Assembly (NCBI GenBank): GCA_963663165.1
Contig: OY760175.1
Span: forward strand, 5,792,001-5,856,000
Length of the DNA: 64,000 nucleotides
Reading direction: 5' to 3'
DNA from: an uncultured Desulfospira sp.
GTDB taxonomy: Bacteria; Desulfobacterota; Desulfobacteria; Desulfobacterales; Desulfobacteraceae
The first letter of the stretch is position 1, and each line of letters starts with the position of its first letter. Position numbers: made by a program. Below are positions 15,001-21,000 of this stretch, piece after piece.

Positions 15001-18000
15001 GTTTTCAAGGGCAAGGGCGGTAATATCACCTACGGGCTCCTCGGTCATCCGGCTCAGCCTGAGCAGTTTTTTTATCCGAAGGTCCTCTAACTTCTTGGCT
15101 TTTTCCGCCCGTTTTTCCTTTTTCCGGATAAAAAGGACCTGGGCTGATATATAAATGGAGATGAATACGATAACAATGAGCAGCCCGATCAAAATCTGGA
15201 TGAACCGTGAGGTGACCAGGTTGGTTTCCCGGGCAATGTCATCCCTGTATAGCCCGGTTCCGATAACCCATCCCCATGGTTCAAAGCTTCTGACATAGGA
15301 GATCTTGGCGGAAATTTTCCCCGGGGTATCTTTCCACTGCCAGTAGTAATCCACATAGCCGGACTGATTTTTCTTCACCGTTTCAACCATGGAAACAAAG
15401 GGGTAGTTCCCGGCTTTGTCCTGGAAGTGGCTCAGGTCTGCGCCCTCCAGGTCCGGCCGGTAGGGGTGCATGATCATAAACGAGTGCATATCCGTGATCC
15501 AGAAATAGTCTTTCCCCTCAATGCCGTATCTTAGCCCCCGGATAATTTCTGCGGTCCTGGCCTTGGCCCTGGTTTCAGTCATCTCGTTTTGCCGGACCTT
15601 GGATTCATACTCGGATAAAAGGCTTAGCACACTGTCGGTTAAATGCCGGATGGTGAGTTTTTTCTGGTTCAGCAGCTGCTTTTCAAACTGGGGCACAAAC
15701 ACGAAAAAAAGGCTTAAGGCAAAAAGCAGATAGGTAAAGTACATGGGGACAAGAATTTTAGCGGAGCCTGAAAGAAATGTCATTCCGGCTGTTTTGTCAT
15801 GGGCGCTTTTTTTCAAAATAAGATGGTCTCCGGGAAAATATGGGGTTAATTCCTGATGCCGCAAGGTTTGGGGAAAAAGGGATGTCCCACAGTTTCTGTT
15901 TTCTGCTGTTGATGAAAATATTGTACCAAATGACGGTAGAGAGTCAATGTAAAATATGGAGACCGGAAGAAAGGAGACCGGAGACCGGATCGCGCATTCT
16001 TAGGGGTTTCGCATTAAAGCCTTTGGATGATGTATAGGTACATGGGCAGCCGGCTGGCAGACTTCAGCCGGTAAAAATCGTAAAGGATCTCCCTGGACGG
16101 GCTGCCGAATTTTAAGGGCGACAGGTAAATGGAGCCCTTGGGCATGGTATGGCCAAGCTGCTCCCTGACCAGGTCCATCATGGCCCCGGTGTGGCCGCTG
16201 GCCAGGGACTCGTCCATGACAAAGTTGCCGGTGATTTCAATGTTTAAAAACTGCTGGTTGATCTGTTGTGCCAGGAAAAAAGCATTTTCCACTTTCTCAG
16301 TGGTGATGGGCTTGCCTAAAATGTCCAGGGTGTTCTGGTCACAGGATTCAAACCCGACGTTGATATAGGTCTCAAAGGGCAGCCGGTTTAACCGTTCAAA
16401 AAAGGCCAGGGGCTTTCCCAACAGGGCATCCACGCTGCCGAACAGGTAGAGTTTGGGGTGGGTCATGAAAGAACGGGTAAACTCAAATTCGTCAAAGCCT
16501 GCCCGGGCAGCGGACAGGATCAGCTCCTCCGGGGCGTTCAGGGCGTCATGCTCGCCAAGGTACAGGCTGTTGACATTGACAAGGTCCGGGCCGTACAGCT
16601 GTTTAAATTCCCGGATCTGTTCCATGATATCGGCCATGGGCCGGGGCGCGAAAGGCTTTTTGTTTTTTATCCGGCAGAATTTGCACTTATACAGGCAGCC
16701 GTCGGCGATGTTCAAGGGGATAACATTATAATCTGAATGCCGGGCATCCGGGGGCAGCACGCTGACCCGGCCTCCCGGGATCCGGAACAGGCTGCGGGCC
16801 TTTTGATCCAGATATTCCGGGGTGACCTGTTTAATACGGTCAATAAAATCCTCGGCCCATTCCGGCATCCCCGGAACCTTTTCGGGCACCTGGGCAATCA
16901 TGTCCTGCCAGCGGCTGCATATCCGGGCGATTTCTTTTTCCCTGAAGGGCTTTCCCCCCAAAAGGGAATTGGTGGTATAGGACAGATTGGGCAGGTAATA
17001 TTCGCCAATGGATTCGTACACGCCGGAATACCCGCCGCTGGAATAGTAGATCCAGTCGTTGCCGATGGTCCGTTTGAGCCACTCGGAGGGGTGGAGCCAG
17101 TCAGGGGATTTTGACTTGGCATGGGTAATCTCATGGTTTAAATTAAATTCAAACACGGCTTGAGGGGTTTCCAGTTTTGAATACAGCCCGTATTTTACCG
17201 GATAACTGACCTTGACGTATTCATGGCTTCCCCGGCAGTTGATTTCCAGGCTTAAATCTTTTCCCTGGTATGTCAGGTTGGGGTGAACAGCCGTTTCTTC
17301 TGGTTTGATCATCACGTTCATATATATTTTAAGGTCCCTTTCAAAACCGGTTGAGTATCTTTTTAAAGAAATATGAATTATTGTCAAGGGGGATTGCGGT
17401 TTCCTGTGGTATAATCAACAGCAAAAATCATAATAAGCAATTAGCCCTTAGCGATTAGCCGTTAGCTTTTGGGGTGTGCCAGCCTGCTAACAGCTAATAG
17501 CTTTACAGAAAGGATAATTCGTCATGAAAGGAATCAAATCAACCGCAAAAGAGCGTATCAGAATTCAACAGGGTGACATCACCACTGTTGATGCGGATGC
17601 CATTGTCAATGCGGCCAATTCCGGCCTGGTCGGCGGCGGGGGCGTTGACGGGGCCATTCACCGGGCCGCAGGGCCTAAGTTAATGGAAGAATGCCGGATG
17701 ATCGGGGGATGCCCCACAGGCCAGGCCAGGCTGACAAAGGGGTATGATTTAAAAGCCCGGTATGTGATCCATGCGGTGGGCCCCATTTACAGCAACGCTG
17801 CAGATGATCCGGTCCTGCTGGCCGGATGTTATAAACAGTCATTTGATCTGGCCAGGGAAAACCAGATCAGAACCCTGGCCTTTCCGGCCATATCCTGCGG
17901 GGTTTATGGTTATCCCATAAGGGATGCCTGCCGGGTTGCCCTTGAAACCACCCTGGAGATATTGAACAATGATGACAGCTTTGAATGGGTGGCCTTTGTC

Positions 18001-21000
18001 CTCTTTTCCCGGGATTATCATGAGGTCTATGCCCAGACCCTGGCGGGTTTGCCGAATTAAGGAAAGTCTTGTATCTTGAAAATTCTGTTTCTTGAGCCTT
18101 TTTTCGGCGGCTCCCATAAGGATTTTGCCCTGGGGTTTTCCGGGCATTCCTCCCATGATGTAGACCTTGTAACCTTGCCGCCAAGGTTCTGGAAATGGCG
18201 CATGAGAGGGGCGGCCCTTTATTTTTTAAAGAAGATTGAGAACCTTTCCGGCTATGACCTGATATTTGCCACGGACATGCTGGATGTGACGGATTTCAAG
18301 GCCCTGGCCGGCCCGGATGTGCCGCCGGTGGTCCTTTACTTTCATGAAAACCAGCTCTCCTATCCGTTGGAGCCGGGTGAGAAAAGAGACCTTCACCTGG
18401 GATTCACCAATATCATTTCCGCTCATGCCGCAGCAGCCGTATGGTTTAATTCAAAGTTCCATCTGAATGATTTTATGACTGCGGCCCGGCGGCTGGTCCG
18501 GCAGATGCCTGATTTCAGACCCGGCTGGGTGGTAGACGAGATTGAGGCCAAGGCAAAAGTCCTGTATCCGGGCTGTTGTTTTCCCAAAGATAATGGGGGG
18601 GCGATTTCCGCCCCCCTTGCCCCACCATTAATTATCTGGAACCACAGATGGGAGCATGACAAGAACCCGGCCGCCTTTTTCGGGGCACTGGACAAGCTCA
18701 AACAGGCTGGAACGGCCTTTTCCCTGGCGGTCTTAGGCGAGCGGTACGACACCGTTCCGGAACCGTTTGCATGGGCCGGCGAAAGGTTCAAAGAGGAGAT
18801 TCGGGCCTGGGGATATGTGGAATCCAGACCGGCATATGAATCCTGGCTTAAAAAAGGCACCCTTGTGGTCAGCACGGCCATCCAGGAAAACTTTGGCATC
18901 TCAGTTATGGAAGCGGTCCGGTACGGCTGCTTTCCCCTGCTTCCCAACCGGCTGTCCTATCCTGAAATCATGCCGGAAGAATATGGGGAACAGATCCTTT
19001 ATACCTCTGAAGACGAACTTTTTCAAAAACTTCACGAAGGCCTTGCCCGGCCGTCTTCCCTTTCAGAAGCCCGCCTTGAGTTGTCCGGTCATGCGGCCCG
19101 GTTTTCCTGGGAGACCATGATAAAGACCTATGACACGGCCCTGGAAAAATTTGGCCGGGGGGCCGGCTGACCAGAGTGATCCTCAGGCCATGGCCTGTTA
19201 AGAACGGATGTCCGTCAGTTTCCGGCCGGCAGTATAAGGGTTGTCTGAATCATCTGTTCAGGTCCATTGCCGATATCTATGGTACCGTTGTGGAGCGCGA
19301 CGATTTTTTGGGCAATGGCCAGCCCTAAGCCTGACCCGCCAAGGGTCTTTGTCCTGGATTTTTCAACCCGGTAAAATTGTTCAAACAGGTGAGGGATATC
19401 CGGTTCCGGAATGGCCGGACCGGAATTGCTGATGTCAATGCGCACCCGGCCTTTTTTTAGCTCCACCTGAATGTGAATGATTCCCTGAACAGGCCGGTTA
19501 TACCGGATGGCATTGTCAATAAGATTGACGAAAAGCCGGAACAGTTTTTCATGATCCCCCGGTACCTGACAGGGGACATCCATCCGGGTTTGGACCTGGA
19601 TCTGTTTTTCGGCAATCACATCGGCATAGTCATCTAACACCTGGCCAATGACTTCATCTATGGCCACCGGGCCGATATGCAGGGTCTCCTGTTGTTCCAT
19701 TCTGGAAAGATCCAGCAGGTTTTTCACCAGATGGCTCATGCGCCGGCTGGTTTCAAGCTGTTTGATCAGTCCCTCTTCCACCGGCAGGGGCAGGTTTCCG
19801 GCCATGAGCATATCCTCCTGGGCCAGCATTAAGAGCGTAATCGGGCTCTTTAACTCATGGGAGGCGTTCCCGATAAATTCCCTTTGGCGGTTAAAGGAGT
19901 GCTGAATCCGGTCAAACATCTTATTCAGGGCCACGGAAAGTTCATAGAGTTCATCCTTGTTTTTTCCAAGGGGGATCCGTTTATCCAGGGACTGGTCGCT
20001 GATTTCACGGGACTGCCGGATAATGGTGGAAACGGGCTTTAAAATTCTGCCGGCCAGGATATGGCTTAAGATAAGAATGACCAGCGAAAACAGAAAAAGG
20101 CTGCCCCCGACGGTCAGAACAAGGGATATCAATTCCTCTTCAAGGTCTTCAATGGGTTTGGCAATGCGAATTTCCAGATGACGGCCGTTGATCGGCTTTT
20201 GGATCACCATGACCCGGAACATCACGTCGTCTTTGGCGTCCTGTTTTAACCAGATATCTGATCGGGGAATATGTCGCTCGATTATGTAGACGGATTTATC
20301 CGATGAATCGGAAAGGTCTGTAAACTCAGTGAGTTTGGACCGGTAAAGCACCTGACCCTGGTTATCCCTGGCCATGATCCAGTACTGGTCGGGATCATAG
20401 GGCATGTTGCCGGAATTAACGGCAGCGCCGGAAAATCCGGCTGATTTTATCCGGTCTGACAGGGCCATGGCCATGTGCTGGATCTCTTTGTCGATGAGCT
20501 TAAACGGCTGTTCGGTCATTTCCCAGAAAATGACGCCCGAGAATGCAATGGTGGACAGCAGGGCGGTGCCGGAAATCCAGAGGGTAATCTTTTTACGGAT
20601 TTTCATGCCTGCTCTTCGATAATGAACCCGATCCCCCGGATGGTTTTGATGATGGGGTCTTCTTTTTGGGGTCCCAGTTTTTTTCTTAAATTTTTAATAT
20701 GAACATCCACATAGTTGGACATTGAAAAGGGGTCAAACTCGTCTCCCCACACATGTTCAGCCAGGCTGAACCGAGATACGGCACTCCCCTTGTTGTGCAA
20801 CAGAAATTCAAGAATTGAAAATTCCTTGACGGTCAAATGAAGGGGTTCACCCTTGAGGGAAACCGTTCGGGCCACCGTATCCAGACAGACCTCGCCGGCC
20901 TCAAGCAGGGGGTTTTTGTTTCCCTTTCGCCGGAGCATGGCCCGGATCCGGGCCATGAGCTCGGCCATGGAAAAGGGCTTGGCCAGGTAGTCATCCGCAC

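Follow-up and report, generated by a model that had tools for sequence, protein, structure and literature searches.

A bacterial glycosyltransferase of the QTMAN/GTDC1 family in an uncultured Desulfospira is a candidate for the sugar modification of tRNA queuosine

The window analysed here is the whole stretch of 64,000 nt from an uncultured Desulfospira sp. (GCA_963663165.1, contig OY760175.1, 5,792,001-5,856,000, forward strand); positions count along this window unless given as contig positions. A macro-domain gene (17524..18060, + strand) and a glycosyltransferase gene (GT; 18076..19170, + strand) lie exactly where the preliminary description had placed them. It had described the GT gene as sitting directly after the macro-domain gene, and the macro stop codon and the GT start are indeed separated by 15 nt on the same strand. 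The pair is flanked by one divergent and one convergent gene, and because of the 15-nt gap the two genes are probably co-transcribed. The macro protein (178 aa; Pfam Macro, E 1.3e-43) is of the YmdB type and scores 224.6 bits against NCBIfam NF001664, the O-acetyl-ADP-ribose deacetylase equivalog with a cut-off of 200. The surroundings of GT in the window consist of sensor kinases, a radical SAM gene and a sulfatase and hold no polysaccharide cluster. The divergent radical SAM gene (16014..17387, - strand; Pfam Radical_SAM, 8.7e-08) is context that probably lies outside the system: no NCBIfam family matched it and an Atlas search with its protein returned generic radical SAM clusters only. Members of its cluster are found at 11 Desulfobacteraceae-type loci, in 10 of them at most three genes from GT.

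Upstream of the macro-GT unit, an extended -10-like promoter element, TGGTATAAT (17407..17415, + strand), can be read from the sequence as a consensus match only. The block around it is conserved in the same-genus genome G001, and the promoter scan did not list it because a fitting -35 hexamer is missing. Between this element and the ribosome-binding site, a palindromic dispersed repeat of about 80 nt (17425..17506, + strand) has been inserted into the leader; the leader of G001 lacks it. Its inverted arms (17450-17466 and 17486-17502) are 88% complementary, its fold z-score is only -1.53, and a search of its own genome gave 40 matches, one of them this copy, with 73-100% identity for the remaining 39.

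The GT gene starts with TTG and encodes 364 aa, of which the N-terminus, MKILFLEPF, aligns with the starts of homologues. An alignment of 37 diverse bacterial representatives revealed 18 invariant residues. Ten of these (S13, H14, W39, R42, H90, E91, Q93, Y96, P97 and S126) belong to the N-terminal, acceptor-side QTMAN_N domain (PF12038; residues 2-166, 18079..18573, + strand), whose reported presence was confirmed at E 4.3e-64 and 215.8 bits (cut-off 25) over model positions 1-167 of 168. The other invariant residues (W188, R191, D195, K196, Y254, G274, E279 and P290) belong to the C-terminal, donor-side GT1 domain (residues 182-310, 18619..19005, + strand), which carries a WNHRWEHDK motif (W188-K196) and matches Pfam Glycos_transf_1 with 30.2 bits (cut-off 26.4). 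The translation further contains an E271-x7-E279 motif (ENFGISVME; 18886..18912, + strand) that includes the invariant E279; E-x7-E is a mark of retaining GT4 enzymes. In the AlphaFold2 model (pLDDT 94.9, pTM 0.92) the predicted fold is GT-B, and the top Foldseek matches of the model are all GT-B enzymes. Its best neighbours in the PDB are the retaining GT4/GT5 enzymes GlgM (6tvp), glycogen synthase (3fro), MshA (3c48) and BshA (6n1x), with E-values of about 1e-13 to 1e-10, TM-scores of 0.6-0.74 and the E-x7-E motif in common, so that an alpha-linked product would fit. However, identity to these neighbours is only 12-16% and the N-domain of GT constitutes a separate Pfam family; a sequence search against PDB chains gave no match to GT.

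GT had been reported to align end to end with animal QTMAN. We compared it with 19 animal QTMAN/GTDC1 proteins other than the four Swiss-Prot entries on which that statement was based, and eight of them bear it out, aligning in a single HSP over approximately residues 1-357 with 29-38% identity. These come from bat (29%, E 7e-63), piranha (31%, 4e-68), mussel (31%, 9e-61), tubeworm (33%, 2e-74), acorn worm (36%, 5e-78), sea urchin (38%, 7e-81), coral (38%, 5e-80) and krill (38%, 6e-81). For the remaining 11 proteins, the one HSP allowed for each spanned the C-terminal half only; in vertebrates, single HSPs broke because of an insert between the two domains. From mammals to coral, each of the 19 animal proteins has the same residue at 17 of the 18 positions invariant in the bacterial representatives, and 18 of the 19 also at the eighteenth; across all 56 sequences (37 bacterial and 19 animal), identity reaches 90% or more at 49 positions. 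The acceptor-side domain is conserved towards animals to the same degree as the donor domain, as illustrated by five crustacean proteins with 36-38% identity in the N-terminal acceptor-side domain and 42-43% in the donor domain. Animal QTMAN (GTDC1) shares the QTMAN_N plus GT1 architecture and the GT-B fold with the bacterial protein, which is shorter (364 aa, where the sampled animal proteins have about 390-470 aa) and, unlike the crustacean members, not fused to N-terminal RRM RNA-binding domains. By its sequence, GT thus genuinely belongs to the QTMAN/GTDC1 family over its full length, and its gene is intact. The original description of QTMAN is reportedly that of Zhao et al. 2023 in Cell.

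In our samples, the family is present in 20 of 24 genomes of the same taxonomic family, in 32 of 41 relatives (this genome counted among them) and, across the phylum, in 44 of 301 genomes. It is absent from all 14 well-known control genomes, among them E. coli and B. subtilis, so bacterial tRNA sequencing would not have met such a modification. The preliminary description had presented glycosyl-queuosine in bacteria as new. In the literature surveyed, glycosylated queuosine is indeed described from animals only, but the claim was overstated, as bacterial members already bear the homology-based name 'tRNA-queuosine alpha-mannosyltransferase domain-containing protein' in NCBI and UniRef.

Queuosine genes had been noted in this genome, and we found TGT (contig 6627013-6628077, E 2.9e-163), QueA (contig 6625750-6626808, E 7.9e-128) and QueH (E 9.3e-63), and no QueG. 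Besides these three, the genome has two genes that match ManC (710 and 704 bits; TIGR01479 cut-off 373), so the cell should be supplied with both queuosine-tRNA and GDP-mannose. The queuosine genes are, as had been conceded, not linked to GT, the distance being about 0.8 Mb for TGT and QueA and about 4.5 Mb for QueH. TGT is found in all 44 GT-bearing genomes of the phylum sample and is lacking in only two of all 301 (299 have it). Similarly, QueA occurs in 30 of 30 GT-bearing Spirochaetia genomes and in 113 of 121 overall, and none of the eight QueA-less genomes carries GT, compared to about two expected by chance. These phyletic tests are without power because nearly all sampled genomes hold TGT and QueA. 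To our knowledge, GluQRS (YadB) alone among bacterial enzymes adds a further group to the cyclopentenediol of Q34. The reaction proposed below for GT would be a second decoration of like kind, although in fold and chemistry this glutamyl-queuosine tRNA-Asp synthetase, an aminoacyl-tRNA-synthetase paralogue that adds glutamate, is unrelated to GT. This genome has no GluQRS match above the TIGR03838 cut-off. Both enzymes occur together in five genomes of the phylum sample (301) versus about 4.2 expected by chance and are not mutually exclusive.

The only tightly conserved operon partner of GT that we found is encoded in Spirochaetia, whose GTs are 45-51% identical to the one described here. In eight Spirochaetia loci, a small RsmB/F-type m5C RNA methyltransferase gene overlaps or directly follows GT (-137 to +1 nt), and both proteins have diverged to 41-63% identity among these loci. 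Spirochaetia GT is thereby predicted to be translationally coupled to the small methyltransferase. Across 121 Spirochaetia genomes, GT occurs in 30, the methyltransferase in 71 and both in 21, in 14 of which the genes adjoin; the methyltransferase is also present in 50 genomes without GT. In the Desulfospira genome no orthologue was found, the best match having 29% identity (E 1e-12). Upstream of GT, the Spirochaetia loci contain a phosphoglucomutase/phosphomannomutase-type gene (seven loci) and a HAD phosphatase gene (six loci).

Divergent relatives are also encoded by phages. Phage GTs score 58-82 bits against the family HMM versus 20-29 bits for four ordinary GT4 controls, reach an hhalign probability of 98.4% and possess the motifs HRxxxDKxPexF, QENFGISxxE and LLPxRLSYxE of the C-terminal half of the family. 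Because they have no QTMAN_N match and align from about residue 116 onward only, the first 115 or so residues remaining unaligned, they may share the donor rather than the acceptor with the family. Two phage loci lie among preQ0-pathway genes, with FolE in both (L131 and L132) and QueD and a QueE-like gene in L131. The phage GTs probably act in a phage DNA-modification setting. We know of no glycosylated deazaguanine in DNA.

We propose that GT is a tRNA queuosine glycosyltransferase and assign this reading, which draws on homology and gene context, a probability of roughly 0.5. The methyltransferase partner in Spirochaetia and the phage relatives near 7-deazaguanine genes lend it indirect support, and none of the GT-bearing genomes examined contradicts it. 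The animal enzyme mannosylates Q34 of tRNA-Asp (10.64898/2026.06.28.735034; PMC11755703). On this reading, GT is a cytoplasmic, retaining GT-B enzyme that would take a hexose from a nucleotide sugar, by analogy GDP-mannose, once TGT, QueA and QueH have made queuosine. Its target would be queuosine in position 34 of a tRNA with a GUN anticodon, where the sugar would go onto one of the hydroxyls of the cyclopentenediol ring; the animal enzyme suggests tRNA-Asp as the candidate.

GT4-type enzymes are known to change acceptors. Bacterial members could act on something other than queuosine-tRNA, whether a small molecule of the cytoplasm, a protein or a different nucleoside in RNA or DNA; queuosine would then have been adopted by the animal branch alone or by some branches only. 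We regard this as a serious if somewhat doubtful possibility. Over 96 loci we found neither a general neighbour of GT nor a recurrent queuosine gene nearby, and the co-occurrence with GluQRS at chance rate points in the same direction. The structural neighbours, which also include SenB and sucrose-phosphate synthase besides MshA, BshA and GlgM, act on small molecules or glucans, and the family is acidic to neutral rather than basic (pI 5.9 for GT, median 6.0 for the 37 representatives). The mutase-type and HAD phosphatase genes of the spirochaetes would suit sugar or small-molecule metabolism as well. On the other hand, every sampled animal enzyme shares 17 of the 18 invariant residues, all ten acceptor-side ones among them, which would be unusual if the acceptors differed. 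The one operon partner that we found to be tightly conserved is an RNA methyltransferase, and GT is present in one copy per genome in the genomes sampled, which likewise argue against a different acceptor.

A connection with the macro-domain neighbour, to which the preliminary description had drawn attention, is not supported. If the two genes formed one module around ADP-ribose chemistry, GT might for example consume or form a product of ADP-ribose type, or one linked to an ADP-sugar, on nucleic acid or protein, and the macro protein would trim or reverse this product. The compact arrangement of the pair between its divergent and convergent neighbours and the score above the deacetylase equivalog cut-off would agree with such a module. 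Yet of 30 loci only three, all from this genus, place the macro gene beside GT, and the 96 loci add no further case; none of seven longer GT homologues has a macro fusion, and the invariant residues of the family are unchanged where a macro partner is missing. We consider the module improbable: the macro gene is a partner within this genus only and is not needed for the queuosine reading. That GT is an ordinary GT4 enzyme for building the cell envelope or exopolysaccharide is very improbable. The automatic JGI name of many members ('glycosyltransferase involved in cell wall biosynthesis') and a second GT4 gene near GT in six loci (adjacent on the same strand in four; with a methyltransferase in five of the six) might suggest it, but GT lies outside any polysaccharide cluster here, recurrent polysaccharide genes are absent over the 96 loci and the family HMM clearly separates GT from its ordinary GT4 neighbours (20-29 bits).

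Returning to the queuosine glycosyltransferase, a wider view would be that some bacteria including this one carry hexosyl-queuosine in tRNA, made by this family, that the family is bacterial in origin with animal QTMAN as an offshoot, that Spirochaetia GT is co-transcribed with the m5C methyltransferase, which mirrors the pairing of manQ34 with m5C38 in the tRNA-Asp anticodon loop of animals, and that phage relatives may add sugar to 7-deazaguanine in DNA. We hold this combination only tentatively, at somewhat less than even odds. Animals cannot make queuine and are supplied by bacteria. If bacteria glycosylate queuosine, this would be a new bacterial tRNA modification, the presumed origin of the animal glycosyl-queuosine pathway would change, and the question would arise whether animals can salvage sugar-bearing queuosine from their microbiome. 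As far as its genes indicate, the Desulfospira bacterium described here may sugar-coat its own tRNA.

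The enzyme encoded at 18076-19170 (+) is best read as a predicted queuosine-tRNA glycosyltransferase, a reading to which we assign a probability of about one half. It is preferred on four grounds taken jointly: deep conservation of the acceptor side, the predicted availability of both substrates in the organism, an operon with an RNA methyltransferase among near relatives, and the lack of any family member in all 14 control genomes, which are model bacteria with mapped tRNAs. The preliminary description had given the 364-residue protein a QTMAN_N plus GT1 architecture, and both domains were recovered, QTMAN_N (PF12038, the acceptor-side domain) at residues 2-166 with 215.8 bits against a cut-off of 25 and the donor-side GT1 domain at residues 182-310 with 30.2 bits against 26.4. 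Animal members were located via longer homologues, namely crustacean proteins, followed by a search whose query was the QTMAN portion of a krill protein. This gave 1106 matches at E <= 1e-20, of which the best 120 include vertebrates and invertebrates; the animal matches among these 120 are named tRNA-queuosine alpha-mannosyltransferase or GTDC1 by their sources. End-to-end alignment with animal QTMAN had also been claimed, and with one HSP allowed per animal protein BLASTP yielded, for 8 of 19 animal proteins, one HSP that spans almost the entire query, at 29-38% identity: bat (29%, E 7e-63), piranha (31%, 4e-68), mussel (31%, 9e-61), tubeworm (33%, 2e-74), acorn worm (36%, 5e-78), sea urchin (38%, 7e-81), coral (38%, 5e-80) and krill (38%, 6e-81). 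For the remaining 11, mostly vertebrates with an inter-domain insert, the single HSP comprised the C-terminal half only.

An alignment of 37 diverse bacterial homologues contains 18 invariant residues, 17 of which are identical in all 19 animal proteins, while Y254 is shared by 18 of them. When the 56 bacterial and animal sequences are taken together, identity reaches 90% or more at 49 positions. The 37 come from a search of the full set of 1.84 billion representatives, which returned 990 at E <= 1e-30. The protein is 36-38% identical to five crustacean proteins in the N-domain and 42-43% in the C-domain. It is a true member of the QTMAN family from a bacterium. NCBI and UniRef name bacterial members by homology; the family is already present in databases and the finding is not new there. 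Literature searches on bacterial QTMAN/GTDC1 homologues found no paper in the library that was searched. QTMAN itself was reportedly discovered in a 2023 Cell paper. The AlphaFold2 model (pLDDT 94.9, pTM 0.92) has a GT-B fold; the solved structures closest to it are those of retaining GT4/GT5 enzymes, with 12-16% identity, and a sequence search of the PDB gave no match. The sequence contains an E271-x7-E279 motif, a mark of retaining GT4 enzymes.

A serious rival, which we regard as somewhat less likely, is that this bacterial family member acts on an acceptor other than queuosine-tRNA. Conservation of the acceptor-side domain, which holds 10 of the 18 invariant residues, argues for the same acceptor as in animals; the isoelectric point of the family, considered as a possible sign of RNA binding, is not basic and so uninformative. 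Relatives also occur in phages. A scan of viral contigs gave five loci, one with the same ORF coordinates as another (L134), so that four phage glycosyltransferases were scanned. They share motifs of the C-terminal half with the family (hhalign probability 98.4%, 31% identity over 144 columns), and the family HMM gives them 58-82 bits versus 20-29 bits for four ordinary GT4 neighbours. None of the four phage proteins matched QTMAN_N. Because the donor-side half alone aligns, this likeness may reflect a common sugar donor rather than a common acceptor. In one phage locus (L131:3498-11498) the glycosyltransferase gene belongs to a run that also contains genes of the preQ0 pathway (QueD, FolE and a radical SAM gene of QueE-like type) and sugar-nucleotide genes (a PfkB kinase and a cytidylyltransferase), in a second (L132:2603-6259) it has FolE, a polynucleotide kinase-phosphatase and RNA ligases in its vicinity, and in a third (L134:8535-10339) it is located just downstream of a ManC-like gene. 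An unknown protein, phrog_10773, is encoded close to the glycosyltransferase in the second of these loci, with a weak match directly after it in the first.

For the queuosine-tRNA reading, the presence of genes for making queuosine had been put forward previously, and we found TGT (contig 6627013-6628077) and QueA (contig 6625750-6626808) side by side and QueH elsewhere in the genome, while QueG was not found there. Two ManC genes for GDP-mannose are also present; all of these genes are far from the window. TGT occurs in 44 of 44 genomes of the phylum sample that carry the glycosyltransferase but is near-universal there (299 of 301), and QueA occurs in 30 of 30 such Spirochaetia genomes but also in 113 of the 121 sampled. 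None of the eight Spirochaetia genomes that lack QueA has the glycosyltransferase, where about two would be expected by chance. As TGT and QueA are nearly universal in the sampled groups, these tests of phyletic dependence are without power, and the counts are consistent with the queuosine-tRNA reading.

The only tight association among the neighbourhoods examined is with an RNA methyltransferase. In eight Spirochaetia loci (L093, L096, L102, L105, L115, L116, L120 and L127; e.g. L120:9992-11891) a small, stand-alone RsmB/F (NOL1/NOP2/Sun) m5C RNA methyltransferase of 250-310 aa overlaps or directly follows the glycosyltransferase on the same strand, with gaps of -137 to +1 nt. Across these loci the glycosyltransferases are 41-63% and the methyltransferases 41-58% identical to each other, and the glycosyltransferases share 45-51% identity with the window protein. 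Among 121 evenly sampled Spirochaetia genomes (glycosyltransferase over the cut-off, methyltransferase at E <= 1e-30), 30 had the former, 71 the latter and 21 both. The two genes were adjacent in 14 of these 21, and in three more they shared a strand at a distance of about 15 kb; of the others, one had them on different contigs and three far apart. This translational coupling is noteworthy in view of animal tRNA-Asp, where manQ34 and m5C38 occur together and depend on each other for their installation, according to a preprint (10.64898/2026.06.28.735034). The Spirochaetia pair may act on one RNA. Given that 50 genomes have the methyltransferase without the glycosyltransferase and that no orthologue of it was found in the present genome, the coupling suggests that the substrate is RNA in a sister group and does not speak about the window locus itself.

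The family is single-copy in this genome and occurs in 32 of 41 relatives, this genome included (20 of 24 within the same family), and in 44 of the 301 phylum genomes sampled. Cultured carriers include Desulfosarcina alkanivorans PL12, Desulfatibacillum alkenivorans DSM 16219 and Desulfobacter curvatus DSM 3379, and the spirochaete carriers include a Marispirochaeta type. Clustering of the ORFs from 101 stretches identified the glycosyltransferase in 96; these 96 loci are not independent, as some genomes appear twice (e.g. L034/L054 and L035/L084). No general neighbour emerged, the largest neighbour cluster reaching at most 16 of the 96 loci. Part of the Desulfobacteraceae-type loci have an upstream block with a HisJ-type PHP phosphatase (13 loci), a TrmJ/YjtD-type RNA methyltransferase (11), a radical SAM gene (11) and a D-Tyr-tRNA deacylase (6), of which only the radical SAM gene occurs in the window (16014-17387, -). 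Its 457-aa product, a recurrent divergent neighbour in those 11 loci, belongs to no NCBIfam family and falls into generic Atlas clusters only. Signalling genes abound in the wider surroundings (9482-25027). They encode two large hybrid sensor kinases that bear Cache, PAS and GAF domains (9482-12895, + and 13042-15864, -), a GGDEF protein (23909-25027, -), and an OmpR-type regulator together with a HAMP histidine kinase (19215-21280, -); a sulfatase-family protein is also encoded there (21369-23396, -).

The glycosyltransferase gene has a TTG start. As described preliminarily, it directly follows a macro-domain gene (17524-18060, +; YmdB-type, 178 aa, Pfam Macro E 1.3e-43), whose product scores 224.6 bits with NCBIfam NF001664 (O-acetyl-ADP-ribose deacetylase; cut-off 200). 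The 15-nt gap on one strand, with the divergent radical SAM gene and the convergent histidine kinase gene (19215-20606, -) as flanks, makes the two look like a two-gene unit. Macro-domain genes adjoin the glycosyltransferase in 3 of 30 loci, all from one genus, so that a macro domain as general partner was rejected and the link is local. In the leader of the unit, an 80-nt palindromic element (17425-17506) separates the promoter-like TGGTATAAT from the ribosome-binding site; it is missing from the corresponding leader of one same-genus genome. It has 40 matches in its own genome, itself included, the other 39 being 73-100% identical, and resembles a dispersed repeat of the REP or MITE type. 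An Rfam scan of 17300-19400 gave nothing near any gathering score.

Among crustaceans, homologues of 709-754 aa carry RRM RNA-binding domains N-terminal to QTMAN_N and GT1; these fusions (P0274-P0278, P0280-P0282, P0284 and P0286) are from malacostracans, namely krill, shrimps, lobster, crayfish, crab, mantis shrimp, isopod and amphipod. Two further gene models fuse a family member to an M20/M28 peptidase (P0273, 785 aa) or a Sulfotransfer_2 domain (P0279, 734 aa). In a quick tree of the 37 bacterial and seven longer proteins, which is unrooted with an unresolved backbone and from which no direction of transfer is drawn, the crustacean proteins form one long-stemmed clade among bacterial rows.

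GluQRS, the bacterial enzyme that decorates queuosine in tRNA-Asp, was over the cut-off in 29 of the 301 phylum genomes. Mutual exclusion with the glycosyltransferase was rejected, as both occur together in five genomes (G130, G191, G221, G249 and G273) against about 4.2 expected. If both enzymes act on queuosine, the queuosine-tRNAs would have to be shared or divided between them in those five genomes.
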